From positions 1 to 44,016 of the IMG/VR virus record IMGVR_UViG_3300038393_001495: a stretch of DNA of 44,016 nucleotides; one strand, written 5' to 3'. Position 1 is the first letter of the stretch, and the number at the start of each line of letters is the position of its first letter. The notes under the pieces are model-generated. The model was given only the letters and a program-made list of their open reading frames with translations, did no database searches and was not told the origin of the DNA. The position numbers and the translations under genes are program-made. Source of the stretch: a virus. Below are positions 1 through 37,433 of the stretch, piece by piece.

Positions 1-127
1 TCGGCGAGGAGCCCCGAGGAGCGGGCGTCGGCGTCGTGCCGGTCGGCCTGCGTGTTCAGGGCGTCGATGATGGCCTCCACGGGGGTCATCGGGTCAGCCC
101 CACGACGACGACGTTCCCGCTCTGCGG
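1..127. repeat. Terminal direct repeat copy 1 (identical to 43890..44016); circular closure of a 43,889-bp unit
   Basis: Read base by base: tcggcgaggagccccgagga...gttcccgctctgcgg is present at both window ends. ORF 43784..43978 reappears as 1..89. Confidence 0.95.
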
Positions 128-439
128 GCGCACGGTCAGCGTGTCGCCGCCCATGACCTCGACGGCGGAGCGCCCGGTCACGTAGTCGTGGACCACGTGA
201 ACGTCGAGCCACTGACGACCGTCGTCGGCGCCTAGGACGAAGCGGACGCGCGCCTTCTCGCCGAGGCCCACGGGGATGTCGGCCCACGGGTCGAGGAGCG
301 CGGAGGAGCGCTCCGGGGCGGTCAGGAGGCGAGCCTCGTCCCGCTCGCGGCGGGCGTCCTCGGCGACGCGGCGGAGGCGGTCGAGTTCGACGCGGGCCCA
401 CACAGGAAGGCGGGCCTCGCGGGCGTCAGCGGTGCTCAT
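86..439 (-). CDS. hypothetical early protein (117 aa)
   Basis: ATG 439, TGA 86. ATGA start/stop overlaps with both neighbours (86-89, 436-439). Ordinary amino-acid composition, unlike the Arg/Gly-rich shadow frames. Confidence 0.7.
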   Translation of the reverse strand: MSTADAREARLPVWARVELDRLRRVAEDARRERDEARLLTAPERSSALLDPWADIPVGLGEKARVRFVLGADDGRQWLDVHVVHDYVTGRSAVEVMGGDTLTVRPQSGNVVVVGLTR

Positions 440-636
440 GGCCGCATGTCCTCTCGAAGGAAGTTCAGCCCGCGGGCGAGCGCCGCGGGGTCAGGCGTGC
501 CGCCCTCGCCGAAGACCTTCGCGGCGAGGTAGGCGTCGAAGTCCACGTGCCGGAGGGCCTTCATGGACCGACGGAGGCGACGCTCCGTGATGGTGAAGCC
601 CCAGGCGGGGCCGAGGGCGCGTGCCGGGGCGCTCAC
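436..636 (-). CDS. hypothetical protein (66 aa, GTG start)
   Basis: Only the last 66 codons of track ORF 436..1485 are kept. GTG 636-634 overlaps the sigma-gene TGA (GTGA) and the stop overlaps the next ATG (ATGA). The rest of that ORF is an alternative frame of the sigma gene. Confidence 0.5.
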   Translation of the reverse strand: MSAPARALGPAWGFTITERRLRRSMKALRHVDFDAYLAAKVFGEGGTPDPAALARGLNFLREDMRP

Positions 637-1442
637 GCCGCCACCTCCAGCGCGTCGCGCATCTTCACGAGGGCGCCCGTGCGGACGCGCTGCGTCTTCG
701 GGCGGGACAGGCCCACGGACGCCGCCACGAGGGCGTCGGAGAGGGGCGCGTGGCCCTCGGGGCGCATCTCGTGACCGTCCACGACGGCGGGCTCGAAGCC
801 GTACGCCTGACGCACGACGGTCGTCTCCTCCGGCGTCGTGACGGCGAAGGCGAGGGCGACGAGTTCGGCGTCGAGGACGCTCTCGAAGGGGTCCGGGGCG
901 TCGTCGCCGTCCACGGCGTACGCGGGCGCCTCGCGGTAGTCGGTCTCGCCGTCGGCGGGGGAGGTGAGGGAGTCCGTCCGGGTCGCCGCCGTCACGGCGT
1001 CGAAGGTCGAGACCTTCATGTCGTGCTCGGGAGCAATGCGACGCGCCTCGGCGAGGTCTCCGTCGGCCTTCTTCACGATGGCGAGGTAGCGCTCCATCGT
1101 CCGCGCCGGGATGGTCCAGCCTCCCGTCCCGGAGGACGCGGCCTCGGCGAGTTCGCGGTTGAGCGCCGTCGCGACGCGGCCCGCGAGGCTCGGGTTCTTC
1201 TCCGGGTCGTGCGTCTTGATGAGGTCGAGGAAGGCGAGCGCGACCTCCTGCTCGGCGTCGTCGGCCTCCATCGTCTCGCCGTACTTCCGGAGGGCGCGGC
1301 GGATGGCGGGCGCGTACTGCTGGAGGAGCGTCTCGAAGGCGCCCGGGTGCCCGTACGCCGCCGCCGTGATGAGTTCGGCCTCGTCCTCCGGGGTCAGCGG
1401 AGCGGGCGTGGTCGTGCCAAGGATGTTCAGGATGTGAGCCAT
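633..1442 (-). CDS. phage-encoded sigma-70-family sigma factor (269 aa)
   Basis: Region-2-like FETLLQQYAPAIRRALRKY...DDAEQEVALAFLDLIKTHDP. Region-4 HTH-like EETTVVRQAYGF...LSDALVAASVGLSRPKTQRVRTGALVKMRDAL. ATG 1442 (MAHILN) chosen. Confidence 0.75.
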   Translation of the reverse strand: MAHILNILGTTTPAPLTPEDEAELITAAAYGHPGAFETLLQQYAPAIRRALRKYGETMEADDAEQEVALAFLDLIKTHDPEKNPSLAGRVATALNRELAEAASSGTGGWTIPARTMERYLAIVKKADGDLAEARRIAPEHDMKVSTFDAVTAATRTDSLTSPADGETDYREAPAYAVDGDDAPDPFESVLDAELVALAFAVTTPEETTVVRQAYGFEPAVVDGHEMRPEGHAPLSDALVAASVGLSRPKTQRVRTGALVKMRDALEVAA

Positions 1443-1627
1443 GGTGTGTTTGCGTTCCTCTCGCATACGGAAGGGCGTGCGGCATCGCCCGAGGTGGTGG
1501 CCGCGGTTGTTCCCGGGCCCCTAGGCGTGCGGAAGCGCGCCCGTGAACGGGGTCCAGGAGGAGGAGCGAGGAAGGCTGGAGGGCCCTGCTACGGCTTGCG
1601 CCGGAGGCGGTTCCTCGCTCCTCCGGA

Positions 1628-1657
1628 AGAGTAGTGGGAGTGAGAGTGGGAGTGCAA
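1628..1657 (-). promoter_or_regulatory. candidate host-type promoter for the sigma gene (TTGCAC-N18-TACTCT)
   Basis: Minus strand reads TTGCAC (1657-1652), an 18-nt spacer, then TACTCT (1633-1628). It lies in the longest, lower-GC intergenic region, about 185 nt upstream of ATG 1442. Confidence 0.4.
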
Positions 1658-1722
1658 ATTGAGTGTGAGTACCTACTTACTCACTCGCCCTACGAGGTAG
1701 AGGCTAGGGCCTGCCTGTTCCA

Positions 1723-2058
1723 CTACTCCTCGTACGGACGGAGGGCCTCTTCGAGGTGGCGCCGGACGGCGGTCGCGTGGAGGGTCGCCGTGCGGAGGGC
1801 TCGCTCGGAGGCCAGGACGTTTACACGGAGCGCGAGGCGCTGTCCGTCGAGGGCGATGTCCTCGGTCGGGGCGCTCGGCTTGTGCCCGATGCCCTTGCGC
1901 TCCGCGGGGACGGTCGTCCGGGGCGGGGCGGTCCACTGGACCTCGCGGGCGCGGGCGAGGAGGTCGCCGATGGCGGCGGTCTCTCCAGCGAAGCGCGCGA
2001 GGAGGGCCTCGGCTTCGAGGGCTTCGAGGTCGTCGGTCGTGAGGGCGGGCTCGGTCAT
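1723..2058 (-). CDS. hypothetical protein (111 aa)
   Basis: ATG 2058, TAG 1723. Preceded by promoter-like box 2089-2122 and an AGAGGA RBS. Confidence 0.7.
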   Translation of the reverse strand: MTEPALTTDDLEALEAEALLARFAGETAAIGDLLARAREVQWTAPPRTTVPAERKGIGHKPSAPTEDIALDGQRLALRVNVLASERALRTATLHATAVRRHLEEALRPYEE

Positions 2059-2088
2059 GCGGATGTCCTCTCGGTCGGGTGCTGTGAC

Positions 2089-2122
2089 GGAGGAATCCGC
2101 CAGAGGCCCGGGGGCTGCTCAC
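2089..2122 (-). promoter_or_regulatory. phage-specific promoter-like box PM1
   Basis: Minus strand: GTGAGCAGC-CCCCGGGCCT-CTGGCGGATTCCTCC. It ends 30 nt upstream of ATG 2058 and follows hairpin 2156-2199. Confidence 0.6.
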
Positions 2123-2155
2123 GGATGCGCGCTCGAGTTTTTCGCCGGGTACGCG

Positions 2156-2199
2156 AAAGGCCCCCGTCCCGACCTGTAGGTCTGTGAACGGGGGCCCTT
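2156..2199 (-). terminator. GC-rich hairpin downstream of the DNA polymerase gene
   Basis: Arms aaaggcccccgt / acgggggccctt (one mismatch), immediately after stop 2204. Confidence 0.55.
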
Positions 2200-2203
2200 C
2201 TGC

Positions 2204-4120
2204 TCACGCGGCGAGCGGCACGTCCTCCTCGGGCGGGCATCCGTACGCCGAGCCCCACGAGGGACCGGCGACCTCGCCCGTCGAGGAGATGGGCACGCCC
2301 TTGAAGTCGCGCGTCATCGTCTCGCCGATGAGCCGTGCGACCTCCTCGGCGTCCTCCCGGGGCGCCTGCGCCACGAGTTCGTCGTGGACGGGCAGGAGGA
2401 GGCAGTCGCCGAGGCCCTTGTCGAAGAGGCTCACGATGGCCTGCGCGAGGATGTCGCGCGAGAGCGACTGGACCGCGTAGTTCGTGGCCGCGTAGAGGCG
2501 GTCACGGTCGAGCGGGAGGTGCCGCCCGGTCTCCGTGACGACCTCACGGGCGCCGAATTGGGCGCGCGTCTGGAGGCGCTTCCCGTAGCGCTTGATGCCC
2601 GGGAACGAGCGGTCGTAGGCGGCGATGGCCTCCTTGACCTCCGGGAGCGGGGCGCCGGTCTGACGCGAGAGCGTCGTCGCGCCGCCGCCGTAGACCTTGC
2701 CGAAGCCGACGCCCTTTCCCATCTTGCGCTGGCGCTTCGTGAAGTTCGGCCCGTAGAGCATCGACGCCGTGAAGTCGTGCAGGTCGAGCCCGTTCCGAAT
2801 CGCCCGGATCATGGCGGGCTCGGGGGCCAGGGCGGCGAGGACGCGCATCTCGATCTGGTCGTAGTCCGACGAGATGATGAGGTGGCCCGGGTCCGCCGTG
2901 AGCGCGCGCCGGATGGTCCAGTCCGACGACGGGAGTTGCTGGAGCGGCGGGCGCGAGATGGACATGCGCGCCGTCCGCGCCTGAAGCCCGCCGATGAACG
3001 GGTGGAGCCGCCCGTCCGGGTCCATGAGGTCGAGGAAGGCGTCGGCGTACGCAGTCGCCCACTTCTCCGAGCGCTTCGACCGGAGCACGGCGTCGGCGAG
3101 GAGGTTCGGCTTGCGGGCCTCGATGCGGTTCCAATCGCGGTCGAGGTCCGCAAGGGGCATGAGGACTTCCTTGTCCACCTTCAGGCCCGTTTTGGTCCGC
3201 TCGGTCAGCGTCTCGCCCATCGCGACGAGGGAGGCCGAGACCTGTCCCGTCGAGTTCACGTTCTCGACGCCGTAGCGCCGAGCGACGCCGCGGTAGTGCT
3301 CGGCCTCGGCGTGGAGGCGGTCGCGGAGGCGGCGGGTGTAGTCCTCGTCCACGCGGATTCCGCGGCGCTGCATGACCGCGAGGAGGACCGCGAGGTGGTG
3401 CTCGAACTTCGAGAGGTGCGAGACGCCCGCGCCCTTCACGAGCGGCCCGAGCGCGTCGAAGAGGCGCCGAGCGAGGAGCGGGTCGAGGCCGGAGTAGAGG
3501 GTGTAGAGCGGGTGGTAGATGTCCACGTTCGCGAAGCCGAACGGGATGTGCGGGCGCGTCGGGTGACGGCGCTTGAATGCGGCGATGTCGTCGGCGCTCA
3601 CGGTCTTCTGCCACGCGCGCCAGAGGGCCAGGAACACGTCCTTCAGGCCCTCCGAGGTGTCCGGGGCGGACTCGTCCACGTAGACCGCGGAGAGCGGCTT
3701 CAGGGAGAGGCCCGTGCCGCCCTCGTGCTCGCTCCGCGGGTCGAGGAGGTGGGCCATGATGCGCGTGTCAAAGCATCGCGGGCCGAAGTCCTCGACCTTC
3801 ACGCCGAGGTGGCGGTCCACCACGAGCCAGTCGAAGGGCGCGTTGTGCGCCGTGAACATGCGGGGCTGGAGGAGGGCCTCCCGGGCGATGCCGCCGAAGA
3901 GGTCCGCGCGGAGGTTGAACGCGAGGTCGCGGTTGCCGAATTGGAGCATCCGGAGGCGGTGGTCGGCCTTGAAGATGTCGAGGTCCGTCGTCTCAGTGTC
4001 GAAGCCGAGAACCTTGTCGTCGCGGGCGAGGAACTCCTCGAAGGCGCCGAGGTCGCTCGGGCGCTCCGGGGTCAGGATGCGGCACTCGTCGCCGCCGAGG
4101 GTGTAGGTCTGTTCGATCAT
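2204..4120 (-). CDS. family A DNA polymerase with 3'-5' exonuclease domain (638 aa)
   Basis: FDTETTDL exo motif. DYDQIEMRVLA (motif A), KMGKGVGFGKVYGGG (motif B), PVHDELV (motif C). Confidence 0.9.
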   Translation of the reverse strand: MIEQTYTLGGDECRILTPERPSDLGAFEEFLARDDKVLGFDTETTDLDIFKADHRLRMLQFGNRDLAFNLRADLFGGIAREALLQPRMFTAHNAPFDWLVVDRHLGVKVEDFGPRCFDTRIMAHLLDPRSEHEGGTGLSLKPLSAVYVDESAPDTSEGLKDVFLALWRAWQKTVSADDIAAFKRRHPTRPHIPFGFANVDIYHPLYTLYSGLDPLLARRLFDALGPLVKGAGVSHLSKFEHHLAVLLAVMQRRGIRVDEDYTRRLRDRLHAEAEHYRGVARRYGVENVNSTGQVSASLVAMGETLTERTKTGLKVDKEVLMPLADLDRDWNRIEARKPNLLADAVLRSKRSEKWATAYADAFLDLMDPDGRLHPFIGGLQARTARMSISRPPLQQLPSSDWTIRRALTADPGHLIISSDYDQIEMRVLAALAPEPAMIRAIRNGLDLHDFTASMLYGPNFTKRQRKMGKGVGFGKVYGGGATTLSRQTGAPLPEVKEAIAAYDRSFPGIKRYGKRLQTRAQFGAREVVTETGRHLPLDRDRLYAATNYAVQSLSRDILAQAIVSLFDKGLGDCLLLPVHDELVAQAPREDAEEVARLIGETMTRDFKGVPISSTGEVAGPSWGSAYGCPPEEDVPLAA

Positions 4121-4161
4121 GAGGTGGCCTTCGTTGTCGGTCCGGGATGGGGAGGTACGCC

Positions 4162-4196
4162 GAAGCCCCCGAGCGCGAGATGCGGTCGGGGGCCTC
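4162..4196 (-). terminator. GC-rich hairpin (attenuator-like) between the Zn-ribbon gene and the polymerase gene
   Basis: Arms gaagcccccga / tcgggggcctc with one mismatch. Confidence 0.4.
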
Positions 4197-4210
4197 GGGA
4201 GGTGGGGCGT

Positions 4211-4327
4211 TTACACGCCCGTCGCGCACGTCGGGCAGTCGATGTGCTGGTTGTGCGCGAGGTGGCAGACGCCGCACACGGTCTCGCGCGGGAGGAGTTC
4301 CGGGACGGTCTCGATGTCAGCGAACAC
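4211..4327 (-). CDS. small zinc-ribbon-like protein (38 aa, GTG start)
   Basis: VFADIETVPELLPRETVCGVCHLAHNQHIDCPTCATGV contains CxxC-x9-CxxC. A GAAAGG RBS lies 7 nt upstream of GTG 4327. Below the track length cutoff. Confidence 0.45.
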   Translation of the reverse strand: MFADIETVPELLPRETVCGVCHLAHNQHIDCPTCATGV

Positions 4328-4338
4328 GGGCGGGCCTT

Positions 4339-6798
4339 TCAGAGGATGGCGTCGAGGTCGGCGCCGGTGATGGGGGATGTGACGGAGGAATCCGCCAGAG
4401 GTGCCGCCTCTGCTCGCGGGGCCTCGGGCTCGGCGTCCGCGGCCTCGGCGGCGTCCTTCGCCGTCGCACGGCGCACGCCGTCGAAGACCATGCCCGCGGC
4501 GGCGCGGCGCTTCGTCAGCCCGCGCTCTTCGAGAGCGGCGTTGAACGTGCGCTTCGTCCAGGCGTCCGCGTCGCGGATGCCCTCGTGCTGGCACCACTCC
4601 CGATACGAGAGGTAGAGGTCGGTCGCCGAGACGCCGCGCTCCTCCTCGTCGTGGAGCCACTCGCCCGGGAGGAAGCCGTAGAGCGCATCCGAGGTCTCTC
4701 GGTAGGCGCCGACGGCGTTCTTCACGACCTCCGGGTCACGGAGCCCGCCCTCGTACCACTCGACGGCGCCACGGACCGCCCACGCGAGGATGCCCTCCGC
4801 CTCGGCGAGGAGCGTCGCGCCGAGACGCGGGTCGCGCTCGTGCGGAGCGAAGTAGCGCTCCCACGGAATGAGTTTCACTCGGCGCCAGAGGCCCTCGTCC
4901 TGCCCGCGGAACTGCGGCTTGTAGTTCGAGGCAAGCATGATGAGGAACGTCGGGCGGAACTCGAAGAACTCCTTCCGCATGAAGCGGGCGGCGATGAGGT
5001 CGCGGCCCGTGACGCGCTTCAGCATCGCCTCCGCCATCGGCTTGTTCGCCTCGCCCTCGGATGCCATGACGAGGCGGGCGCCCTTCAGCGCCGCGATGTC
5101 GTTCGGGATGCCGCCCGAGGGCTTCGCCTCGAACGTCGAGAACGGCGTCGTGACGGTCGCCTCGCGGAAGACCTCCGTAAGCGTGTCCGTGAGGACGGAC
5201 TTCCCGTTCGCGCCCTTGCCGACGTGGACCACGAAGCACTGCTCGTCCGTGCGGCCCGTGATGCCGTAGCCGACGAGGCGCCGCATGTACGCCGGAAGCG
5301 CCGGGTACTTGTCGAAGACCTCGCCGAGGAACTTCTCCCAGCGCGGCGCCTTCGCGTCCTTCCGATACACGAGGTCGATGCGCCGCGTCAGGAGGTAGGC
5401 CGGGTCGTGCGGGAGGAGGTCGCCCGTGCGGAGGTCCACGACGCCGTTCGCGCACGCGAGGAGGTCGTGGCGCTGGTCGAACTTGTCGAGCGGGGTCGCC
5501 ACGTCGCGGAGGGCCTTCACCTCGCGAATCGCCGCGTCGATGCCGCGGCTGCTCTGCGAGTAGTTCGCCCAGGCACGCCACGCCTTCGCCGCCGCCTCCT
5601 GTTCCTTCGTTACGGCGCCGACCGCCATCGTCCGGGCGATGGCCGCGGTCATCTCCGCCGCCTCCTGCGCGTAGGCGCGCGAGGCGTCGAGGTCGTCCGG
5701 GCGCCACACGCCGCCGTCGAGCACGAAGAATCCGCTCTCGGGTGCGTAGCGGAGGTCCGAGCCCTGCGAGCGGGCGTAGTCCCGAAGGAAGCGCGCGTTC
5801 CCGAGGTCGGTCAGCGGGTAGGTGGACTGGTCGCGCCCGGAGAGCGCCGCCGAGTAGGAGGACTCGACCGGCGCCTCCATGATGGCGCGCACGATGGCGC
5901 GGCCCGTCGGGTCGCTCTCGCGCCACTTCGAGAGGTCGGAGTCCTCCGGGACGGCGAGGCGCGCGACCGTGACCGAGCGCTCCGTCATGCCCTGCGCGAT
6001 GGCCGCGGAGAACTGCTGGCCCGCCCGGTCGCCGTCGCCGCACGCGATGACCTTCCGGCCCGCCGCGAACGCCGCGAGGGCGTCGAGGATGGTCGGGTTC
6101 GAGGCGTTGCCCGAGCCCGCGATGAAGAACACGTCGTAGCCGAGGGAGACGCCGGTCAGTCCGTCGCCGGGGCCCTCGGTCACGAGCACCTCGCCCCATC
6201 CCGAGGAGCCCGGGAGCGTGCCGTACTTCAGCCACGACCCGCCGCCCTCGGGGCGCTTCGGGCCCTTCCAACGGAGGTCCACGGCGGGGTCGAGGGCCCG
6301 GGCCTGATAGCCGCGCGGGTTGCCCTCCACGTCGAGGAACGGGACGACGAGGCGGGGCGTGTCAGTCTCCGAGAGGCCGAGGCCCAGGCGACGCGCCTCC
6401 TCCGCCGAGATGCCGAAGCGCCGCTCGGCGTAGTCGAGGACGGTCGAGTAGGAGGCGTCCTCCTCGGCGAGCGCGTCGGCCCAGCGGTCGAGGTCGGCGA
6501 CGAGGCCCGCGATGACCTCGGGCGCCGGGGGCGCGTCCGTCGAGGTCGCGCGGCGGGAGGCCGGAACCTTCCCGTCGATGGTCATGCTCGCGAGGTCGCG
6601 GAGGGAGAGGCCCATCTTGTCGAGCACGTCGGTCGTCTTGCATCCCGTCCGGCATCGGACGAGCACACGGTCGCCGTCCTTGCCGACCGCGACGCGGAGC
6701 GAGGGGTCCGAGTCGGAGTGCGCGGGACAGATGGCGAGCCATCCGTCGGGCTGCTCCTCCACGCCGTCGAGGCGGGCGAGGAAGGCGGAGAGGTCCAT
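4339..6798 (-). CDS. bifunctional DNA primase / D5-P4-type helicase (819 aa)
   Basis: DnaG-like zinc finger CPAHSDSDPSLRV. TOPRIM-like VTEGPGDG...CGDGDRAG. Walker A GKGANGKS and Walker B LVMASEGE. Start MDLSAF at 6798, behind an AAAGGA RBS, rather than track start 6984. Confidence 0.85.
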   Translation of the reverse strand: MDLSAFLARLDGVEEQPDGWLAICPAHSDSDPSLRVAVGKDGDRVLVRCRTGCKTTDVLDKMGLSLRDLASMTIDGKVPASRRATSTDAPPAPEVIAGLVADLDRWADALAEEDASYSTVLDYAERRFGISAEEARRLGLGLSETDTPRLVVPFLDVEGNPRGYQARALDPAVDLRWKGPKRPEGGGSWLKYGTLPGSSGWGEVLVTEGPGDGLTGVSLGYDVFFIAGSGNASNPTILDALAAFAAGRKVIACGDGDRAGQQFSAAIAQGMTERSVTVARLAVPEDSDLSKWRESDPTGRAIVRAIMEAPVESSYSAALSGRDQSTYPLTDLGNARFLRDYARSQGSDLRYAPESGFFVLDGGVWRPDDLDASRAYAQEAAEMTAAIARTMAVGAVTKEQEAAAKAWRAWANYSQSSRGIDAAIREVKALRDVATPLDKFDQRHDLLACANGVVDLRTGDLLPHDPAYLLTRRIDLVYRKDAKAPRWEKFLGEVFDKYPALPAYMRRLVGYGITGRTDEQCFVVHVGKGANGKSVLTDTLTEVFREATVTTPFSTFEAKPSGGIPNDIAALKGARLVMASEGEANKPMAEAMLKRVTGRDLIAARFMRKEFFEFRPTFLIMLASNYKPQFRGQDEGLWRRVKLIPWERYFAPHERDPRLGATLLAEAEGILAWAVRGAVEWYEGGLRDPEVVKNAVGAYRETSDALYGFLPGEWLHDEEERGVSATDLYLSYREWCQHEGIRDADAWTKRTFNAALEERGLTKRRAAAGMVFDGVRRATAKDAAEAADAEPEAPRAEAAPLADSSVTSPITGADLDAIL
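4384..4417 (-). promoter_or_regulatory. phage-specific promoter-like box PM2 (embedded in the 3' end of the primase gene)
   Basis: Minus strand: GCGAGCAGA-GGCGGCACCT-CTGGCGGATTCCTCC, 56 nt upstream of GTG 4327. Confidence 0.5.
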
Positions 6799-6830
6799 GC
6801 GGGAGAGTCCTTTCGGTCGGGTGTGACGCG

Positions 6831-6864
6831 AGAGGAATCCGCCAGTCGCGGGGGCGCTGCTCAC
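6831..6864 (-). promoter_or_regulatory. phage-specific promoter-like box PM3
   Basis: Minus strand: GTGAGCAGC-GCCCCCGCGA-CTGGCGGATTCCTCT, 32 nt upstream of ATG 6798 and directly after hairpin 6880-6908. Confidence 0.6.
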
Positions 6865-6879
6865 GCCAGAACGCACGAA

Positions 6880-6908
6880 GCCCCCGGGCTCCGAAGAGGC
6901 CCGGGGGC
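6880..6908 (-). terminator. GC-rich hairpin terminator
   Basis: Perfect 10-bp stem gcccccgggc / gcccgggggc with a 9-nt loop. Confidence 0.6.
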
Positions 6909-6913
6909 GGGGC

Positions 6914-6932
6914 GTGTAAACGCCGTTTACAT
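6914..6932. promoter_or_regulatory. 19-bp palindrome GTGTAAACG-C-CGTTTACAT (two inverted copies of the dispersed 9-mer)
   Basis: Read directly. It contains the TAA stop (6927-6929) of the upstream gene. Confidence 0.6.
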
Positions 6933-7247
6933 GAGGCGCCGGAGGACGGCGGCGAACTCGCGGAGCGGGAGGACGACGTACCACTCGCCGACGCCCTTCC
7001 CGGGGCGCCGGACGACCGCGGCCCCGAAGGGCTCGCCCGCCCGGACCTTCTGCCGGAGGGCGCCCTCGACGCCCGCGCGCATCGCGGCGAGGAGGTCGCG
7101 GAAGTCCTTCACCTGAAGGACGAAGGGCGAGACGCCGTGGATGTCGCCCGCGTCCTCGAAGCCCGCGTTGTACGGCTTGAACGCCGGGACGCCCTCGGCT
7201 TCGAGGAAGGCGACGACCTTCGTCTCGGCCTCCGTGCCGCCGCTCAT
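6927..7247 (-). CDS. PD-(D/E)XK-type nuclease, possible Holliday-junction resolvase (106 aa)
   Basis: AFLEAEG...EDAGDIHGVSPFVLQVK resembles the E...D...(E/Q)xK nuclease core. ATG 7247 forms an ATGA overlap with the upstream gene. Confidence 0.45.
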   Translation of the reverse strand: MSGGTEAETKVVAFLEAEGVPAFKPYNAGFEDAGDIHGVSPFVLQVKDFRDLLAAMRAGVEGALRQKVRAGEPFGAAVVRRPGKGVGEWYVVLPLREFAAVLRRLM

Positions 7248-7573
7248 CGTCGCCCGGAGCGGACGGTCGTGGAGCGGTAGGTCGTGGTCTTCGAGCGGGT
7301 GCCCGAGAACCATCCGCCCGTCTTCTGCTTGACGACGGTCTTCTCGCGGACCGTCACGGGGCGGGTGCGCTGGACGCGCGTCGGGCGGAGCGGGGTCGCC
7401 GGGTAGTAGTGACCCTGCCAGTAGCCCGAGTGGACCGGAAGGCACTGCATCCCGCGGAGGTGATACCCGGGCGGGCACGAGTCGGCGTAGTAGGTCTCGT
7501 AGCGCGGCGAGCACGCGCCGAGGGCCAGGGCGACGACCACGGCGCCGAGAGCGGCGATGGACTTGCGGATCAT
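7244..7573 (-). CDS. putative secreted lipoprotein (109 aa)
   Basis: N-terminal MIRKSIAALGAVVVALALGAC looks like a signal peptide with a lipobox-like LGAC. Confidence 0.6.
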   Translation of the reverse strand: MIRKSIAALGAVVVALALGACSPRYETYYADSCPPGYHLRGMQCLPVHSGYWQGHYYPATPLRPTRVQRTRPVTVREKTVVKQKTGGWFSGTRSKTTTYRSTTVRSGRR

Positions 7574-7592
7574 GGGGAGCCTTTCGTACGAG

Positions 7593-7628
7593 GAAGGCCC
7601 GCCCCCGGAGTAGTGGAGGCGGGCCTTC
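7593..7628 (-). terminator. GC-rich hairpin terminator/attenuator
   Basis: Perfect 11-bp stem gaaggcccgcc / ggcgggccttc. Confidence 0.55.
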
Positions 7629-7631
7629 GGG

Positions 7632-7784
7632 TCAGTCGCGGGGCGGGTAGTGGAAGTGCGCGGCGCGTGCCGCGGTGTTCTCGGCGATGAGGCGCTCGTA
7701 GGCGTCCACGGCCTCCCGCTCCCGGCGACGTGCGCCGAAGAGAGGGAGGCCGAGGAGGAGGAGCGTGCGGACGAGTCCCGTCAC
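7632..7784 (-). CDS. small membrane protein (50 aa, GTG start)
   Basis: VTGLVRTLLLLGLPLFG... has a hydrophobic N-terminus. GTGA overlap with stop 7781 of the upstream gene. Confidence 0.45.
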   Translation of the reverse strand: MTGLVRTLLLLGLPLFGARRREREAVDAYERLIAENTAARAAHFHYPPRD

Positions 7785-8440
7785 TCGGCGGCGCCGAGGA
7801 TGGAGACGACCGGCTTCGTGAAGACGTTGCCGTTCTTCATCTCGACGCGCTCCAGCGCGAGGGTCGCCTTCGCGGGGCCCTCGACCTTGCCGAGGTCGCC
7901 GATGGCCTTGCCGACGACGGTCGCGAGGCTCCACGCGCCGGACTCGAACTTCCAGAGGCCGAGGTCGGGGTCGCTCGCGAGGCGGAAGGTGATGGAGACG
8001 CGGGGCTCGCAGACGTGGCCCTGCTCCTCGTGCTCGGCGCGGTTGCGGAAGCCGCCCATCTCGCAGACGTACGGCTTGCCGTCGGTCTCGAAGACCGAGT
8101 TGTCGCAGACGACGATCTTCTTCTGACCGCGGGGCCAGATGAGCATGCGTGCGTCGATGGCGGCGGCGCCGTCGAGGATGACCTCGACCTCGCCGGAGGT
8201 CGTGAAGACCTCGATGTTCTGCTCGGTCTTGGTCTCCCACGACTGCGGACCCGCGGAGGCGCCGAGGGCCTTCGCGATGGAGTCGGCGGCGTCCGGGTCG
8301 CCGGTCGTGACGCGCCACTCGGTCAGGCTCGCGGGCGTGCCGTTCACCTGATAGCCCGAGCGGAAGTTGCCCACGATGTCGTCGGCGCCGAAGCGCTTGC
8401 CCGAGTCGGTCTGGAGGGAGGGGTCGAAGAGGTCGATCAT
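7781..8440 (-). CDS. hypothetical replication-module protein (219 aa)
   Basis: ATG 8440 (MIDLFDPS) lies behind box PM4. Track ORF 7781..8935 extends upstream through a non-coding region. No motif recognised. Confidence 0.65.
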   Translation of the reverse strand: MIDLFDPSLQTDSGKRFGADDIVGNFRSGYQVNGTPASLTEWRVTTGDPDAADSIAKALGASAGPQSWETKTEQNIEVFTTSGEVEVILDGAAAIDARMLIWPRGQKKIVVCDNSVFETDGKPYVCEMGGFRNRAEHEEQGHVCEPRVSITFRLASDPDLGLWKFESGAWSLATVVGKAIGDLGKVEGPAKATLALERVEMKNGNVFTKPVVSILGAAE

Positions 8441-8489
8441 GCGGAGTGTTCTCACTTTCAAGAGGCGGTAATGCCCGCGGTGGGGCAAG

Positions 8490-8523
8490 AGAGGAATCCG
8501 CCAGTCGTGCTCGCGCTGCTCGG
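8490..8523 (-). promoter_or_regulatory. phage-specific promoter-like box PM4
   Basis: Minus strand: CCGAGCAGC-GCGAGCACGA-CTGGCGGATTCCTCT, 49 nt upstream of ATG 8440 and after hairpin 8540-8570. Confidence 0.55.
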
Positions 8524-8539
8524 GGCCAGGAACGCCGAA

Positions 8540-8570
8540 GGGCCCCCACCTCGCGAGGAGGTGAGGGCCC
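8540..8570 (-). terminator. GC-rich hairpin terminator
   Basis: Arms gggcccccacctc / gaggtgagggccc (one mismatch), right after stop 8578. Confidence 0.5.
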
Positions 8571-8577
8571 TTGTGGG

Positions 8578-8976
8578 TCAGGCGGAAGCGAACGTGCCGG
8601 GTGGCCTCGTGAGGGCCGGACCCGGGAACGAGACGCGGTTCTCCAGCCCCTCGCGCCGGAACGCGAGCCCGCCGAGAATGTCGCCGATCTTCGAGGAGCG
8701 ACGGGCGCCCATGTGGGGCAGGAGCGCCCGCATGATGTCCGCCGCGCGGTCGCCGGAGACCTCCGCGTGGAAGGTCGTCTTGTGGACCTTCGAGATGGTC
8801 ATGCGGATGCGCGAGCCCATGAGGGTTGCCGCGCGACCCACCACGTCCCGGTCGGTCATGCCGACGCGGATGCGCGGGTACTTCCCGCGGTGGAGGTCGA
8901 ACGTGCCCTCGCCTTCGAGGAGGCCCGCGAGCCACACGAGGTCGGACTCGCCGATGACGAACGGACCGTGCTTCAT
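8578..8976 (-). CDS. free-standing single-motif LAGLIDADG homing endonuclease (132 aa)
   Basis: DLVWLAGLLEGEGTFDL matches the LAGLIDADG motif context. ATG 8976 forms an ATGA overlap with the upstream gene. Confidence 0.7.
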   Translation of the reverse strand: MKHGPFVIGESDLVWLAGLLEGEGTFDLHRGKYPRIRVGMTDRDVVGRAATLMGSRIRMTISKVHKTTFHAEVSGDRAADIMRALLPHMGARRSSKIGDILGGLAFRREGLENRVSFPGPALTRPPGTFASA

Positions 8977-9170
8977 CGGGCCACTCCGTCCATCGAGCGG
9001 TTCCAGCGGACCGTCCGGTAGCCGTCCGGATGCGCCGGGTCGTCCTCGAAGCGAGCGAACGAGGCGACGTTCGTCATCGTGTCGAGGAAGGCGTCGTCCC
9101 ACGGCTCGGCGTTCGGGAGGTCGCGGAGGCGGGCCTCCTCCTCCGGCGTGAGGTTGCGGTAGCGCGTCAT
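8973..9170 (-). CDS. hypothetical protein (65 aa)
   Basis: ATGA overlaps at both ends (9167-9170, 8973-8976). It is the tail of track ORF 8973..10184. Confidence 0.5.
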   Translation of the reverse strand: MTRYRNLTPEEEARLRDLPNAEPWDDAFLDTMTNVASFARFEDDPAHPDGYRTVRWNRSMDGVAR

Positions 9171-10087
9171 GACGCCTTCGCCTTCGCGCGCGCCTTCGGC
9201 TGGTTGATGGGCCCTCTCTGCTGCCCGGGCTTGAACTCGCCGCCCGCCGCGACGGGCTTCCCGATGACGCGCTTCTTCACCTCGGAGTCCCAATCGAGGA
9301 CTTCGCGGAGGGCGAGGAAGTAGTCGAAGACATCGACCTCGTGGCCCGGGACCACCACGTCGCCGGTCGGCTCGTGGACGACGGGCTCGGCGAGGGTGAC
9401 CGTGCCGACCTCGACCGGGACGAGTTTCCAGCCCTCGGGGCGGACGAGGAGGACGGCGCCGCCCTCGGCCTTCGGGAGCGGGACGCGGGAGCCGTCCGGG
9501 CGGACGATGTGCGTCGCACGCGAGTACGCACAGAGTTGGAGCGCGACCTCCTCGTGGACGCCGGACCGGGTGGTCTTCCAGTCCATGAAGAGGAGTTTCC
9601 CCTTCAGGTCGCCCACGTCGCCGGTCAGGCGGGCCAGGGCGTCGAACGAGCCCGCGTAGCCGAACTCGTCGGACCAAACGGTCTCTTCGAGGAAGACGAA
9701 CTCGGGCTTCGCGATGTCGAGGAACTCGCGGAAGTGCTCGATGTACGGCTTCAGGTTCGGCGTGATGCGCGGGTTCTCGCCCTTCGCGATCTGCTCGAAG
9801 GCGTCGTGCGCCTCGGAGCCGACATCGGCGGAGTTCGACGTGAAGCGGCGCGGGGCGCCCTTCAGGAGTTCGACGGCTGCCTTCGGGTCGCGCATCGCGA
9901 TACCGACGACATCGCCCATGTTCTCGACGGCGTACTCGGCGACCATCTTCGCCGCCCAGAACGTGAGGAACGGCTTCGGGAGCATGTTCAGGACGGAGGT
10001 CACGCCGGGGTTCTTCCGGCCCGTGTCGGGGTTCACGTAGAACCGTGAGCCACCTCGGGAGATGGTGGAGACCTTCGGAGTGGTCAT
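9167..10087 (-). CDS. PD-(D/E)XK exonuclease (Cas4/RecB-like, 306 aa)
   Basis: GYAGSFDAL ... LFMDWKTT ... QLCAY fits the D / (D/E)xK / QxxxY nuclease motif set. Confidence 0.65.
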   Translation of the reverse strand: MTTPKVSTISRGGSRFYVNPDTGRKNPGVTSVLNMLPKPFLTFWAAKMVAEYAVENMGDVVGIAMRDPKAAVELLKGAPRRFTSNSADVGSEAHDAFEQIAKGENPRITPNLKPYIEHFREFLDIAKPEFVFLEETVWSDEFGYAGSFDALARLTGDVGDLKGKLLFMDWKTTRSGVHEEVALQLCAYSRATHIVRPDGSRVPLPKAEGGAVLLVRPEGWKLVPVEVGTVTLAEPVVHEPTGDVVVPGHEVDVFDYFLALREVLDWDSEVKKRVIGKPVAAGGEFKPGQQRGPINQPKARAKAKAS

Positions 10088-10117
10088 TTGGGGGTTCCTT
10101 TCCTGTCAGGGGACAGG

Positions 10118-10151
10118 AGAGGAATCCGCCAGTAGAGCCAGGGCGGCTCAG
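10118..10151 (-). promoter_or_regulatory. phage-specific promoter-like box PM5 (5' box overlaps stop codon 10148-10150)
   Basis: Minus strand: CTGAGCCGC-CCTGGCTCTA-CTGGCGGATTCCTCT, 30 nt upstream of ATG 10087. Confidence 0.55.
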
Positions 10152-10723
10152 TCCTCGACGTTCTCCGCGGTCTCGCGGAGCCACTGTTGAAGCGTGCGCG
10201 TGGAGGCGGCGACGCGGGCGCGGTCCGCCGAGGTGAGGGTGTCGAGGGAGCGCTTGTCGAGGTGCGAGAGGCGCTGCGCGAGCGTGTAGAGCGAGGCCAC
10301 GGTGTCCGAGGCGAGGCGCTCGGCCTCGCGCTTCGTCTTCGGGTTCTGCCGTACGAAGTGACGTTGCTTCGGCGTCTCGGCCATGAGACCGGCGTCCGTG
10401 AGTTCCTCGGCGTTTACACGCTCACGTAATGCATTCCCGACGTGATAGCGAATAGACGCCTTTATCGAGGATTGACCATCGGCAGGAAGGCCGGCCTTTG
10501 AGTAAATGTCCGCGACTATTTGACGATAAGCGAATGAATTGCCTGCCCAATCGGGCATTCCTTCGGGCGTCGTATAGCGCGCGCGGAGTTCTACGAGAAT
10601 GTCCGCGACTCGCCGGAACTCGGGCGAGCGATAGCGCGGCTCCAATCGGAGCGCGGCGCGGAGGTACTTAGCCGCGAGGTTGCGGAGTTCGTCCTCGCCG
10701 AGGAGTTCGAGGTCAGTAGCCAT
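10148..10723 (-). CDS. hypothetical protein in a lower-GC island (191 aa)
   Basis: ATG 10723 (MATDLELL). Region about 10420-10740 is visibly AT-richer. In-frame TTA codon at 10427-10429. No motif recognised. Confidence 0.6.
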   Translation of the reverse strand: MATDLELLGEDELRNLAAKYLRAALRLEPRYRSPEFRRVADILVELRARYTTPEGMPDWAGNSFAYRQIVADIYSKAGLPADGQSSIKASIRYHVGNALRERVNAEELTDAGLMAETPKQRHFVRQNPKTKREAERLASDTVASLYTLAQRLSHLDKRSLDTLTSADRARVAASTRTLQQWLRETAENVED

Positions 10724-10730
10724 AAGCGGG

Positions 10731-10760
10731 AGCATAGCGAAGTGTGAGCCCGCGTGCCTA
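10731..10760 (-). promoter_or_regulatory. weak candidate host-type promoter (TAGGCA-N18-TATGCT) giving a leaderless mRNA
   Basis: The -10-like TATGCT ends 7 nt before ATG 10723. Sits between terminator 10777-10808 and the gene. Confidence 0.3.
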
Positions 10761-10776
10761 CGCTCCGGTAACGCCG

Positions 10777-10808
10777 AAGGCCCCCGCCTCATAAGAGACG
10801 GGGGCCTT
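10777..10808 (-). terminator. GC-rich hairpin terminator after the RNR gene
   Basis: Perfect 10-bp stem aaggcccccg / cgggggcctt. The plus-strand side carries a TTTT run. Confidence 0.6.
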
Positions 10809-10841
10809 TTCGGTGGAACGGCGTACTAGCGAGTAGGGCGA

Positions 10842-12974
10842 CTAGCGGACGGGACACGCGCCAGAGGCGCAATCCTCGTCCACGCCGTCCGCCACGAGGC
10901 GCGCGGCTGCGGCCTCGTAATCCGCCGCCGTGATGCGCTCGTAGGGCGCCTGCGGGCGCGAGCCGTCGAGCATGACGGTCGTACCCTTCAGCCCCGGGAG
11001 CGCCGCCGTGAGCGTCTCCACGAGCGACGCGACCGCCTCGGCGGACGGCGGCGGAGGCGTCAGCGCGCCGGAGGCCAGGGCCTCGTCCTGATGCGGCTCG
11101 GCGGGGATGTTGACCGTGAAGGACACGGCGTTGTCCGCCCACGCGCGCTGATAGAGGGCCTGCATCCGGAGGAGGTCCGCGGGCGAGATGTCGCTCTGGC
11201 CCTCCACGAGCGAGCCCGGGAGCCCGAGGGCCTCGACCTGCTCCACGAGGATGTCCTTCGTCGGGTAGGTGACGACGACCGTGTTCCCGCTCGGGTCGTA
11301 CTGATCGGGCTCGACGTGGAAGCCGTCGAACTCGGCCCGCTCCACGATGTCGCGCTCCCGCTCCGAGGTCATCGAGAACCGCACGCGCCGGAGGAAGTGC
11401 GTCGAGTAGATCGGGTGGATGCCCTCGGCGACTCCAGGCATCTTCGCGATGGTGCCCGTCGGGGCGACCGTCGTCACCTTCACGGGCTCCGGCATGCGGA
11501 GGCGGAAGGCGTAGCGGCGGGCCTCCTCGCGGACCACGAGGTAGAGGTCTTCGAGGAGGGCCTCGAAGCCCGGGACGTACGGCGCCGCCGAGTAGCGGAT
11601 GCCCTGCTTCACGAGGAAGCCGTGGACGCCGAGATGCCCGACGCCGATGCGACGGTTCGAGGCGAGGCGCGCGGCCTGCTTCGGGTCGTTTACATCGCCG
11701 TACGTCGCCCGCATGAGGAACCGCGTCATGAGGACGTGCGCCTCCCGGAGGTCCGCCGTGACGGCGAGCCCGCCCGAGGCGAAGGCGTCGAGGTTGACGT
11801 GGCCGAGGTTGCAGTTCTCCCACGCTTCGAGAGCAATCTCGCCACACGGGTTCGTCGCGATGACCTCGCCGACCTCGCCCTCGTTCGAGAGGGAGGAGTT
11901 CCAGAGACCGGGCTCGCCGTTCGTGAGCATCCGCTCGGCGACCTTCTGGAGGATGAGCCACGCCGCCGAGCCCCCGCGGGCCATGTCCGCCGTGAAGTCG
12001 TCGTCCACCTCGACGGAGATGTTCGTCGTCCAGTGCTGCGACGGGTCTTCCTTGCAGGCCAGGAAGTCGAGGACGAACGGGTCGCGCCAGTGAACGATGG
12101 ACATGCGGGCCGAGCGCCGGACGCCGCCCGCCACGACCGCCTCGCCGATGGCGTGGTCAATCGCCATCGCGTCGAGGGGCGTCATCTGCCGAGCCCCGGC
12201 GTAGGTGACATCGAGGCGGAAGCCGTTCTCGCGGTTGCCGTTCATGACCTCGGCGACCTTGTGCAGGAGGCGAGCGAACGGGAGCGGGCCCGACGCCGTG
12301 CCGCCGAACGTGCGGAGCGGGGCGCCCTTGCGCCGGACGCGCGTCATGTCGAAGACGCGGTTCTCGTGCTCGACCGGGGCGTCCGTCATGAAGGTGTCCA
12401 CGAGGTCCACGAGCGCCGCGGCGATGCCCTCGCGCGAGTCCTCGACCGGGAAGGCGCCCGTCCACTCGTGCGAGTAGTCCGTCGAGATGAGGCCCTCGGC
12501 GACCATCGCCTCGTAGTCCGGGTGCGACGGGTCGCACACGACATGCACCTTCAGCGAGCGGCGCGGGGCGCCGTACTTCGCGAGGTGCCGCGAGGAGTAG
12601 TTCGCCCCGACGCCGCCGCCCTCGGCGAGGCGCTGGAAGGTGAACTCGAAGTGCTCCGAGAGCGACTCGCCCCATCCGGCGACGTGGCAGTTGAAGAGGT
12701 ATTGACGCCCCTTCACGCCGGACGCCCAGAGGTGGCGCCCGCCCGGGAGGAGGCGGAAGTCGAGCATGTAGTCGAAGAGGCGCGCGTACTCCTCGTGGAC
12801 CTCGCGGGACCACGAGGAGCGCGGCCCGTGGACGAGGGAGAGGTTGCCCTCGGCGACGCGGGCGACGGTCTCGGGCCACGTCTCCAGCGAGCCGTCCGGC
12901 TTCGGGCGCGAGTAGGTGCGGGTGTAAACGGTCTCGCCGGTCGGGCCGAACGGGACGGAGGGAGCGGAGGTCAT
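10842..12974 (-). CDS. nrdJ: class II (adenosylcobalamin-dependent) ribonucleotide reductase (710 aa)
   Basis: Active-site-like NPCGEIALEAWENCNLGHVNL and a C-terminal Cys pair CASGACPVR. ATG 12974 chosen over TTG 12995. Confidence 0.85.
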   Translation of the reverse strand: MTSAPSVPFGPTGETVYTRTYSRPKPDGSLETWPETVARVAEGNLSLVHGPRSSWSREVHEEYARLFDYMLDFRLLPGGRHLWASGVKGRQYLFNCHVAGWGESLSEHFEFTFQRLAEGGGVGANYSSRHLAKYGAPRRSLKVHVVCDPSHPDYEAMVAEGLISTDYSHEWTGAFPVEDSREGIAAALVDLVDTFMTDAPVEHENRVFDMTRVRRKGAPLRTFGGTASGPLPFARLLHKVAEVMNGNRENGFRLDVTYAGARQMTPLDAMAIDHAIGEAVVAGGVRRSARMSIVHWRDPFVLDFLACKEDPSQHWTTNISVEVDDDFTADMARGGSAAWLILQKVAERMLTNGEPGLWNSSLSNEGEVGEVIATNPCGEIALEAWENCNLGHVNLDAFASGGLAVTADLREAHVLMTRFLMRATYGDVNDPKQAARLASNRRIGVGHLGVHGFLVKQGIRYSAAPYVPGFEALLEDLYLVVREEARRYAFRLRMPEPVKVTTVAPTGTIAKMPGVAEGIHPIYSTHFLRRVRFSMTSERERDIVERAEFDGFHVEPDQYDPSGNTVVVTYPTKDILVEQVEALGLPGSLVEGQSDISPADLLRMQALYQRAWADNAVSFTVNIPAEPHQDEALASGALTPPPPSAEAVASLVETLTAALPGLKGTTVMLDGSRPQAPYERITAADYEAAAARLVADGVDEDCASGACPVR

Positions 12975-12995
12975 GCGAAACGCCTTTCGTGGCAA

Positions 12996-13029
12996 GGGCC
13001 CCCGCCCTCGGCGAGGAGGACGGGGGCCC
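12996..13029 (-). terminator. GC-rich hairpin
   Basis: Stem gggcccccg / cgggggccc with inner cctc/gagg pairing. Confidence 0.5.
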
Positions 13030-13040
13030 GGGAGGGAAGG

Positions 13041-13157
13041 TCAGAGGAAGAGGAGACGGGCGACGACCGCGGCGAGCACGGCGCCGATGAGGAAGCCGAC
13101 GGCGAACGCCGCGCGGAAGCGGTCCTCGGGACCGGGCGGGAGCGCGGCGGCGCTCAT
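13041..13157 (-). CDS. small membrane peptide (38 aa)
   Basis: Hand translation MSAAALPPGPEDRFRAAFAVGFLIGAVLAAVVARLLFL. ATGA overlap with the upstream small ORF. Below the track cutoff. Confidence 0.4.
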   Translation of the reverse strand: MSAAALPPGPEDRFRAAFAVGFLIGAVLAAVVARLLFL

Positions 13158-13249
13158 CGGTAGCGCCTCGGCGTCAGGAGGACGGCGAGCGTGCCGAAGA
13201 TGGCGCCCCACACGATGAACGAGAGGACGAACGAGGCGAGGGCGCTCAC
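13154..13249 (-). CDS. small membrane peptide (31 aa, GTG start)
   Basis: Hand translation VSALASFVLSFIVWGAIFGTLAVLLTPRRYR. GTGA overlap with stop 13246. Confidence 0.35.
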   Translation of the reverse strand: MSALASFVLSFIVWGAIFGTLAVLLTPRRYR

Positions 13250-13518: not shown

Positions 13519-13519
13519 G

Positions 13520-14104: not shown

Positions 14105-14105
14105 G

Positions 14106-14318: not shown

Positions 14319-14355
14319 GGGAGGAGTTCCTCTCTCTGTCGTGTTGGGGACAGGA

Positions 14356-14388
14356 GAGGAATCCGCCAGAGTCGCGAGGCTGCTCACG
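14356..14388 (-). promoter_or_regulatory. phage-specific promoter-like box PM6
   Basis: Minus strand: GTGAGCAGC-CTCGCGACT-CTGGCGGATTCCTCT (9-nt spacer), 37 nt upstream of GTG 14318. Confidence 0.6.
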
Positions 14389-14400
14389 GGAAAGCGAAAG

Positions 14401-14426: not shown

Positions 14427-14441
14427 AGGGCGGCGGAGCGG

Positions 14442-34617: not shown

Positions 34618-34620
34618 GCG

Positions 34621-35371: not shown

Positions 35372-35405
35372 TGAGGAATCCGCCACGGTTACGCCACGTG
35401 CTCAC
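35372..35405 (-). promoter_or_regulatory. phage-specific promoter-like box PM7 (candidate late-operon promoter; 5' box overlaps stop 35402-35404)
   Basis: Minus strand: GTGAGCACG-TGGCGTAACC-GTGGCGGATTCCTCA. No further box is seen between here and the lysis genes at about 15 kb. Confidence 0.55.
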
Positions 35406-37400: not shown

Positions 37401-37433
37401 GGAGGAATCCGCCAGTCGCCGGATGCTGCTCAC
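37401..37433 (-). promoter_or_regulatory. phage-specific promoter-like box PM8
   Basis: Minus strand: GTGAGCAGC-ATCCGGCGA-CTGGCGGATTCCTCC (9-nt spacer), 50 nt upstream of ATG 37350 and after hairpin 37445-37475. Confidence 0.6.

Follow-up and report, generated by a model that had tools for sequence, protein, structure and literature searches.

Phage sigma switches are textbook biology, with SPO1 and T4 as the familiar examples. Here we describe a candidate for such a switch in the virus of IMG/VR record IMGVR_UViG_3300038393_001495, of which the whole stretch of 44,016 nucleotides (positions 1 to 44,016) was analyzed and is referred to below as the window. A gene at 633..1442 on the minus strand encodes a 269-amino-acid (aa) protein of the sigma-70 family, which probably directs host RNA polymerase to eight bipartite sequences, termed boxes, on the same strand. 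In the sigma cascade of SPO1, gp28 serves the middle genes and gp33/gp34 the late genes (PMC13401047). The logic proposed for the window is alike, since host sigmaA would lead to a phage sigma that redirects the host core polymerase to phage promoters. However, no close sequence relationship to the SPO1 system is detectable, and the phage of the window bears an integrase, is actinobacterial, and has a G+C content of 71% with promoter elements that are themselves G+C-rich. Moreover, only one sigma gene and one class of box are involved here, which would make for a single-step switch rather than a cascade.

Closer in sequence is the family of Lizalica gp43, from Arthrobacter phages of cluster AZ, with homologues reported in clusters EB, EH and FP. 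Using tblastn, we find homologues of the window protein in 122 deposited phage records of Arthrobacter, Microbacterium and Curtobacterium, at 26-38% identity, with at least 80% of the query covered in 118 of them. GenBank labels a few members "RNA polymerase sigma factor" (IAmGroot gp50, GardenState, Zeta1847, Phives, Adumb2043 and Burritobowl gp45). A 2025 preprint reports an HHpred value above 99% and an RpoS-like model for Lizalica gp43, and never mentions promoters. The sigma likeness of this gene family is thus already known from the GenBank annotations and the preprint. The window gene belongs to the family by its full-length homology, its predicted sigma fold and its location after DNA polymerase I and before a SprT-like protease and the serine integrase, a gene order that the window shares with Curtobacterium phage Moss, with Lizalica and with Microbacterium phage IAmGroot. 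Nevertheless, the window protein falls in a separate soil-metagenome clade, where its closest relatives (P0001-P0005) are 67-97% identical to it, and Moss, Lizalica, IAmGroot and the homologue P0016 lack the beta-hairpin insertion found in its sigma4 domain.

Microbacterium phages of clusters EC and EI also resemble the window phage, as actinophages in which a sigma gene is annotated and a motif recurs between genes, but their 18-bp repeat, TAGaCTCTaGGTgTaAgC, is different, and the published account links neither gene nor repeat to the other (PMC7302621). In the searchable literature, where the family appears as a DNA-binding protein or candidate repressor, we found no description of the box consensus, of its synteny across the AZ, EH and Curtobacterium phages compared here and the window clade, or of its co-variation with sigma2. 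The box regulon therefore seems to be undescribed, and the pairing of a G+C-rich -10 element with an aromatic-poor region 2.3 seems unusual.

At the level of profiles and fold, the product of 633..1442 is a divergent full-length sigma-70-family protein with the order sigma2-sigma3-linker-sigma4 and a layout like that of group 3 sigma factors. Translation confirms the 269-aa open reading frame (ORF) given in an earlier note made from the sequence alone. Its ATG at 1442 lies behind a ribosome-binding site, GAGAGGAA, in a start context that relatives keep, whereas an ATG at 1466 was rejected as the start because it is absent from two related loci (L004 and L010) and hence not conserved. The single sequence matches PHROG_351, "RNA polymerase sigma factor" (E=9e-7), and several NCBIfam sigma models weakly, at about 12-17 bits against cut-offs of 125-350. 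A profile of 18 sequences, for which 17 metagenomic homologues were gathered, yielded 23 matches in the PDB (E=1.3e-5); all 23 are sigma factors, and the alignment to SigA is full-length, from region 2 through region 4.2. An exhaustive profile search for homologues returned 2546 clusters at E<1e-3 and 198 at E<1e-30. An 86-sequence family profile matched B. subtilis SigA at E=1.9e-19, and all 60 matches listed among its 83 in the PDB are sigma factors (SigA, SigB, SigF, RpoS, FliA, RpoH and RpoD), including S. aureus SigB (8x6g_H, E=4.6e-17) and sigma F (1l0o_C).

Searches with the Pfam region profiles are positive for the family, if not for the window protein by itself. Sigma70_r4 is matched individually by 31 of the 86 members (best 3.2e-12) and Sigma70_r2 by nine (best 1.5e-7), while only two reach the r3 profile at E<1e-3. 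The AlphaFold2 (AF2) model of the protein has a predicted local distance difference test score of 78, with values of about 89-96 across most of residues 190-260, and is divided as follows:

Residues ~18-103: sigma2, helical (model)
Residues 113-154: sigma3, a three-helix bundle (model)
Residues 157-182: acidic disordered linker (model)
Residues 185-264: sigma4, with a helix-turn-helix (model)

The clade-specific beta-hairpin insertion falls in the model at about residues 216-235, between regions 4.1 and 4.2. The best 50 Foldseek matches of the model in the PDB are all sigma factors (E down to 4.7e-6, probability 1.00), among them the kinds found with the profile, and over the whole chain the model agrees with them in fold and in the order of its domains; the TM-scores are low, at about 0.3, which we attribute to the flexible linkage of the domains. 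Each domain can also be recognized separately. In the profile alignments the core-binding motif of region 2.2, DAEQE...HDP, aligns to DLIQE...FD of SigA, the three-helix bundle of sigma3 is accompanied by an alignment that runs through SigA region 3, and LSRPKTQRVRTGALVKMR aligns with the recognition helix of SigA region 4.2. The region 2-like and region 4-like segments that the earlier note had read from the sequence are thus borne out by family profiles, model and Foldseek, and region 3 is present too.

Group 3 sigma factors (SigB, SigF, FliA/WhiG, RpoH) are similar in having about 250-280 aa and the domains sigma2, sigma3 and sigma4. However, the NCBIfam models stay far below their cut-offs for the window protein, and the aromatic residues of region 2.3 are not conserved in it. 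To our knowledge, the candidate box promoter resembles none of the group 3 sigma consensuses.

The boxes have the form G(T/C)GAGCA-N12/13-TGGCGGATTCCTC. Exactly eight copies of TGGCGGATTCCTC occur in the window, all on the minus (gene) strand, and G(T/C)GAGCA precedes each of them at 12-13 nt. A six-site match to the full pattern arose in none of 100 shuffles, and the eight-copy box noticed earlier is evidently real. When the window was scanned with the half-sites no degenerate extra copies were found, the next candidates having at least 4 mismatches and lying on the wrong strand. All eight boxes lie on the coding strand, with 31-62 nt between the 3' end of the box and the start codon, or the tRNA-Trp, that follows it:

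2090..2122, minus strand: box 1, GTGAGCA-N13-TGGCGGATTCCTC; the ATG of the DUF7169 gene is 31 nt downstream and the sigma gene is next
4385..4417, minus strand: box 2, in the 3'-terminal part of the primase/helicase gene; a 38-aa ORF and DNA polymerase I (2204-4120) follow
6832..6864, minus strand: box 3, with the primase/helicase ATG (6798) 33 nt downstream
8491..8523, minus strand: box 4, 50 nt upstream of a Gp3-like gene (7781-8440)
10119..10151, minus strand: box 5, followed after 31 nt by the exonuclease gene (9167-10087)
14356..14387, minus strand: box 6, with a 12-nt spacer; opens a nucleotide-metabolism/replication module (70-aa ORF, deoxynucleoside monophosphate (dNMP) kinase, ribonucleotide reductase)
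35373..35405, minus strand: box 7, 62 nt upstream of tRNA-Trp (35236-35310), which is followed by an HNH endonuclease, the presumed cos site and the terminase small subunit
37402..37433, minus strand: box 8, with a 12-nt spacer; a 571-aa ORF (35635-37350) begins 51 nt downstream
14426-14399: terminator-like hairpin directly upstream of box 6 (hairpin call)
37475-37445: terminator-like hairpin directly upstream of box 8 (hairpin call)

Similar hairpins, judged by eye, precede the boxes at 6832, 8491 and 2090. Reading of the sequence places a GC-rich hairpin at about 2150-2195, just upstream of box 1, and a hairpin followed by a T-containing tract ahead of box 3. The position of box 2 is also occupied in Moss, Lizalica, L004, L006 and L010. 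Fixed orientation, proximity to gene starts, conserved half-sites around a free spacer and, for some boxes, a terminator-like hairpin immediately ahead are the features by which the boxes resemble promoters.

Several other observations concern individual boxes. The TGA in the upstream half-site of box 5 could be the stop codon of a preceding ORF, 10148-10792, which is unconfirmed as a gene, as it has no PHROG match and is not among the ORFs with high third-position G+C. Following box 5, the 5' leader of the exonuclease gene (10088-10118) can form a hairpin, CCTGTC-cccT-GACAGG. Equivalent leaders are present in L004 (1292-1320), L006 and L010, and those of L004 and L010 carry the compensatory CGTGTC...GACACG, which suggests that the putative exonuclease transcript begins with a conserved stem. 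Following box 7, tRNA-Trp(CCA) lies behind a long GC-rich leader hairpin (leader 35311-35372), and in Moss a tRNA-Asn lies behind a similar GACTCCTCatgt half-box. The 571-aa ORF behind box 8 has a third-position G+C of 0.98 and only sub-threshold SH3-like and NHase-beta matches; L004 and L010 have ORFs of 450 and 501 aa without Pfam matches at the matching position, which we assume to be homologues.

Relatives with a clear box family have boxes built on a common framework, GAGCA-N13-TGGC-NNNN-TCCTC. GAGC, TGGC and T.CT do not vary among the 28 sites that were aligned from 6 genomes, and the 12-13-nt spacer is unconserved. Within a genome all copies have the same four bases after TGGC, but genomes differ in them:

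GGAT: window, L004, L005
CCAT: L006, L010 (same contigs as L015, L016)
CCTC: L007, L008, L011, L012, L021
CGAC: Moss
GGTC: IAmGroot
TCCC: Lizalica
TCTC: L019

The exact window box was not found in Moss or Lizalica, which have their own variants instead. In these two phages and in IAmGroot, whose sigma proteins are 32-36% identical to that of the window, syntenic boxes stand ahead of the genes for dNMP kinase, exonuclease, Gp3-like protein, primase and DNA polymerase. Box copies are present even at the loci L019 and L021. Scans of IMG/VR and JGI metagenomes for further relatives gave two contigs already in the set and five distant loci, and a scan of a genome collection for prophage hosts gave one distant 28% match in a Sphingomonas metagenome-assembled genome, which is uninformative.

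The change of the four bases can be set against the change of the protein. When GGAT-type phages are compared with those of the CCAT type, identity is 50% for sigma2.3-2.4 and 60-63% for sigma1.2-2.2, as against 91-93% for sigma3 and 86-96% for sigma4, and the upstream half-site GTGAGCA and the TGGC are unchanged. After L006 had been read, L010 was predicted beforehand to carry CCAT because its sigma (P0003) shares the sigma2.3-2.4 sequence of L006, and this prediction was borne out. Across the same phages the hexamers of a second promoter-like class, TTGCGC and TA(C/G)ACT, remain constant. Supportive of a role for the protein at the boxes, this pattern is the one expected if sigma4 were to read the upstream element, sigma3 the TGGC and sigma2 the variable bases.

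The second class resembles host sigmaA promoters and includes the promoter of the sigma gene itself:

1628..1657, minus strand: candidate host sigmaA-type promoter of the sigma gene, TTGCAC (1657-1652), 18-nt spacer, TACTCT (1633-1628)
1665..1684, minus strand: inverted repeat GTGAGTA-N6-TACTCAC, a candidate operator just upstream of the -35 element of that promoter
43186-43216, 42318-42348, 41600-41630, 37847-37877 and 14789-14819, minus strand: five copies of a sigmaA-like promoter family, TTGCG(C/T)-N18-TACACT (repeat families)

The promoter candidate at 1628-1657, already pointed out in the earlier note, is present and is conserved in L004, L006 and L010, with the -10 variants TATAGT, TACCGT and TAGACT, all of the form TAnnnT. 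It is of the same type as the five-copy family and would give a 5' leader of about 180 nt. L006 and L010 keep the inverted-repeat block, and L004 keeps part of it. In L011, L012 and Moss the promoter spacer itself contains a similar repeat, GAGTA...TAC(T)CA, and more distant relatives have a TTGCGT -35 with a related repeat retained. Each of the five sigmaA-like promoters has a near-palindrome, CCGTGCCACGG, in its spacer and a conserved GGCCAGAGGAGGCC leader, and these palindromes look like a set of repressor operators for the early region. IAmGroot and Lizalica share the hexamers, TTGCGC with TACACT or TAGACT. To judge from the motifs, the TTGCGC-N18-TACACT class probably represents host sigmaA promoters, which are presumably early and likely to be operator-controlled. 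A scan with the E. coli promoter consensus called no site in 1-15500 or 33500-44016, but this consensus is uninformative for actinophage DNA of 71% G+C, so the result is no evidence against the sigmaA-like motifs.

The sigma gene does not lie at the distal end of an early unit, where it had been placed at first, but where the box-driven replication module meets a stretch of sigmaA-like promoters; this stretch extends over the circular junction of the genome. No phage RNA polymerase was found among the large ORFs, and the host core polymerase must therefore read the boxes; for a phage that encodes no polymerase, a sigma switch would be an economical way to read a promoter class that is not the host's. 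We consider it likely, from the arrangement of these motifs, that host sigmaA makes the phage sigma, which in turn redirects the host core polymerase to the eight boxes. According to this model, the host sigmaA holoenzyme would transcribe the sigma gene from its operator-flanked TTGCAC-N18-TACTCT promoter, and the phage sigma would bind host core RNA polymerase and steer it to eight identical bipartite promoters. There, sigma4 would read the upstream GTGAGCA, sigma3 the invariant TGGC in the manner of an extended -10, and sigma2 the GGATTC. The switch would turn on the nucleotide-metabolism and replication genes, DUF7169 and the right-end genes, the last of these being served by boxes 8 (37402) and 7 (35373), and sigma itself may be subject to feedback by read-through from box 1 (2090). 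As the weakest step, transcription from boxes 7 and 8 may cross cos in circular or concatemeric DNA and enter the structural operon.

The distribution of the two motif classes, which relatives conserve, would be compatible with a putative sigma-switch regulon of the SPO1 gp28 type, where the phage-specific promoters ahead of middle or late genes are of another class than the host-type promoters of the sigma gene. The proposal of the earlier note that the phage sigma reads the boxes is hence supported by sigma family membership, box architecture, synteny and co-variation with sigma2, direct reading being our inference from sequence. As a regulon, the set of boxes looks like an ordinary kind of phage gene-timing switch.

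A number of observations weigh against this proposal. The single 269-aa sequence reaches only 20.7 bits with Pfam Sigma70_r2 (E=3.6e-4), below the gathering cut-off of 24. In region 2.3, the SigA aromatics of YATWWIRQ, which melt the -10 element in primary sigma factors, align to RVATALNREL (RLAGRV... in the family consensus). The candidate -10 element of the boxes, GGATTC, is G+C-rich rather than A/T-rich and lacks the A(-11)/T(-7) pattern. With neither the aromatics nor an A/T-rich -10 in place, we file the protein under the sigma-70 family only and not with canonical group 3. The co-variation sample is a handful of genomes and is phylogenetically confounded. Two relatives, the locus L017 and the EB phage Burritobowl, show no clear box family, Burritobowl having only a 2-copy 65-nt repeat, and we do not claim the regulon for cluster EB for this reason. 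In run searches the phage was found in soil DNA metagenomes, but three metatranscriptomes gave only spurious GC-rich matches of about 40 nt and no transcript 5' ends. Finally, the half-site scan finds no box in 15-34 kb, so that, box 7 beyond cos excepted, the 19-kb structural operon has no box of its own. Control of the late genes is therefore conjecture only, and box 7, acting across cos, would be the only candidate driver that we found for that operon.

A bolder reading of the same sequences takes these phages as a natural series of matched sigma/promoter pairs, in which the four bases are re-specified together with sigma2.3-2.4 and a G+C-rich -10 element is opened without the canonical aromatics, a mode undescribed for sigma factors of groups 1-3. 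We regard this as possible but doubtful.

Alternatively, the protein could be a genuine sigma factor that serves other promoters, with the boxes read by a host alternative sigma or by sigmaA together with another phage activator. Appropriation of a host sigma by a phage activator is well known from MotA/AsiA of T4, and these phages do encode other DNA-binding proteins; since DUF7169 is always adjacent to the sigma gene, the co-variation could also belong to another phage gene. The -10-like part of the box, without a known melting signature, and the region 2.3 without its usual aromatics would be less of a difficulty in such a case. However, the only other repeated promoter-like family looks sigmaA-type and stays constant where the sigma proteins differ widely, whereas the boxes change in concert within each genome, tracking sigma2 rather than sigma4. 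Their framework is kept though the hosts span three genera, and the 8 kb of host DNA that borders the prophage at L007 is free of box copies. We know of no actinobacterial alternative-sigma consensus (SigH/R, SigE, SigB/F, WhiG) that the box matches. A different reader thus appears unlikely.

The protein might instead be a sigma-derived regulator that binds DNA or polymerase: an immunity repressor, for instance, or a factor that inhibits the polymerase or acts as a decoy. This would agree with the missing melting residues of region 2.3, with the label "DNA binding protein" in most GenBank records, and with the preprint, which lists the family with the candidates for an immunity repressor and points out that it lies upstream of the integrase; to that extent the preprint counts against a sigma function. 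Nevertheless, sigma2, sigma3, linker and sigma4 are all kept, including the core-binding motif and the region 4.2 helix-turn-helix, and the boxes differ from repressor operators in that they have a direction, consist of two parts and are not palindromes. An operator-like repeat such as that on the sigma promoter would fit a gene repressed in lysogens and not a repressor gene. Moreover, the EB phages are lytic and have neither integrase nor repressor (PMC7302621), yet the gene is retained in them, as in Burritobowl. We therefore hold a purely regulatory role to be quite improbable.

That the boxes are RNA-level signals (for processing, stability or antitermination) or sites of replication or recombination, and not promoters, is highly improbable, for although conservation extends downstream of the box (TCCTGTC...) and one leader hairpin has compensatory changes, so that an RNA-level function does exist near boxes, two conserved blocks with a length-fixed, sequence-free spacer are a protein-DNA signature, several boxes come just after terminator-like hairpins where transcription must restart, their strict placement upstream of genes fits promoters, and Rfam finds only tRNA and nothing at the boxes.

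The sigma gene has the following neighbors:

1723..2058, minus strand: DUF7169 gene, directly upstream neighbor of the sigma gene (Pfam PF23773, E=8.6e-19)
633..1442, minus strand: phage sigma-70-family gene, 269-aa product
436..636, minus strand: 66-aa ORF, whose GTG start overlaps the sigma stop (GTGA)
86-439, minus strand: DUF7239 gene (E=1e-21), with an ATGA overlap with the end of the 66-aa ORF

The two overlaps suggest a translationally coupled sigma operon. A homologue of the 66-aa ORF overlaps the sigma stop in L004 and L005 as well; in the window this ORF has no PHROG match and no family match. The pair of DUF7169 and sigma genes is also present in L004-L007 and L010-L013, and DUF7169 as a partner of sigma is a speculation. 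At L013, the gene directly downstream of the sigma homologue (1630-2181) weakly matches Sigma70_r4_2, and its product may be a second sigma-like or an anti-sigma-like partner.

An exact 127-bp terminal repeat (1-127 = 43890-44016) indicates that the assembly is circularly closed, with a genome of about 43.9 kb whose genes run on across the ends of the window; essentially all genes are on the minus strand. The serine integrase is encoded at 38009-39655 (phrog_95, E=4.5e-77), and the ORF at 42391-43764 was ruled out as an integrase by its codon-position G+C. Similarly, 35635-37350, the 571-aa ORF without a family, was ruled out as a terminase, as the terminase small subunit (phrog_1496) is at 33550-34110; from gene order, we infer that the next ORF, 31769-33562, encodes the large subunit. 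The homologue P0016 lies in an integrated prophage (L007:12100-20816) on a 66-kb bacterial contig, where host genes (amino-acid kinase with a PUA domain, GH3 glycosidase, IMS-family polymerase, DNA polymerase III alpha-like) begin about 1.5-2 kb past the sigma gene. This prophage supports a temperate lifestyle in the family of phages with the sigma gene and, together with the serine integrase, makes it plausible that the window phage is temperate, as had been suggested.

A long palindrome of about 108 nt, less G+C-rich, is found in two 90%-identical copies (14884-14991 and 37894-38001), both just upstream of a sigmaA-like promoter and one of them directly after the stop codon of the serine integrase. 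The RNA fold of its region (37885-38005, minus strand) has -66.8 kcal/mol (z=-11), and L004, L006 and L010 keep the sequence of the palindrome arm directly behind the integrase gene. Possible roles of the palindrome are those of attP, of a strong terminator or insulator, and of an operator region. The ~730 nt at 40441-41174 contain no strong minus-strand gene, only small plus-strand ORFs such as 40945-41157 (70 aa, no Pfam match), and near the equivalent place relatives have a single reverse-strand gene (L006 15335-15538, L010 14461-14697, Moss gene 44). This segment is a candidate place to look for a repressor.

More than 100 deposited actinophage genomes label the gene "DNA binding protein", whereas the evidence favors "RNA polymerase sigma factor", a reading under which candidate middle promoters can be picked out in each genome. 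For these integrase-bearing phages it also suggests a logic of lysogeny, in which silencing a few sigmaA-type early promoters, that of sigma included, would silence every box-driven operon. The four-base variants paired with sigma2 variants amount to a small and directly testable specificity code, and cultured relatives exist on Arthrobacter, Microbacterium and Curtobacterium. If the reading is true, matched sigma/promoter pairs could become orthogonal expression parts for high-G+C Actinobacteria.

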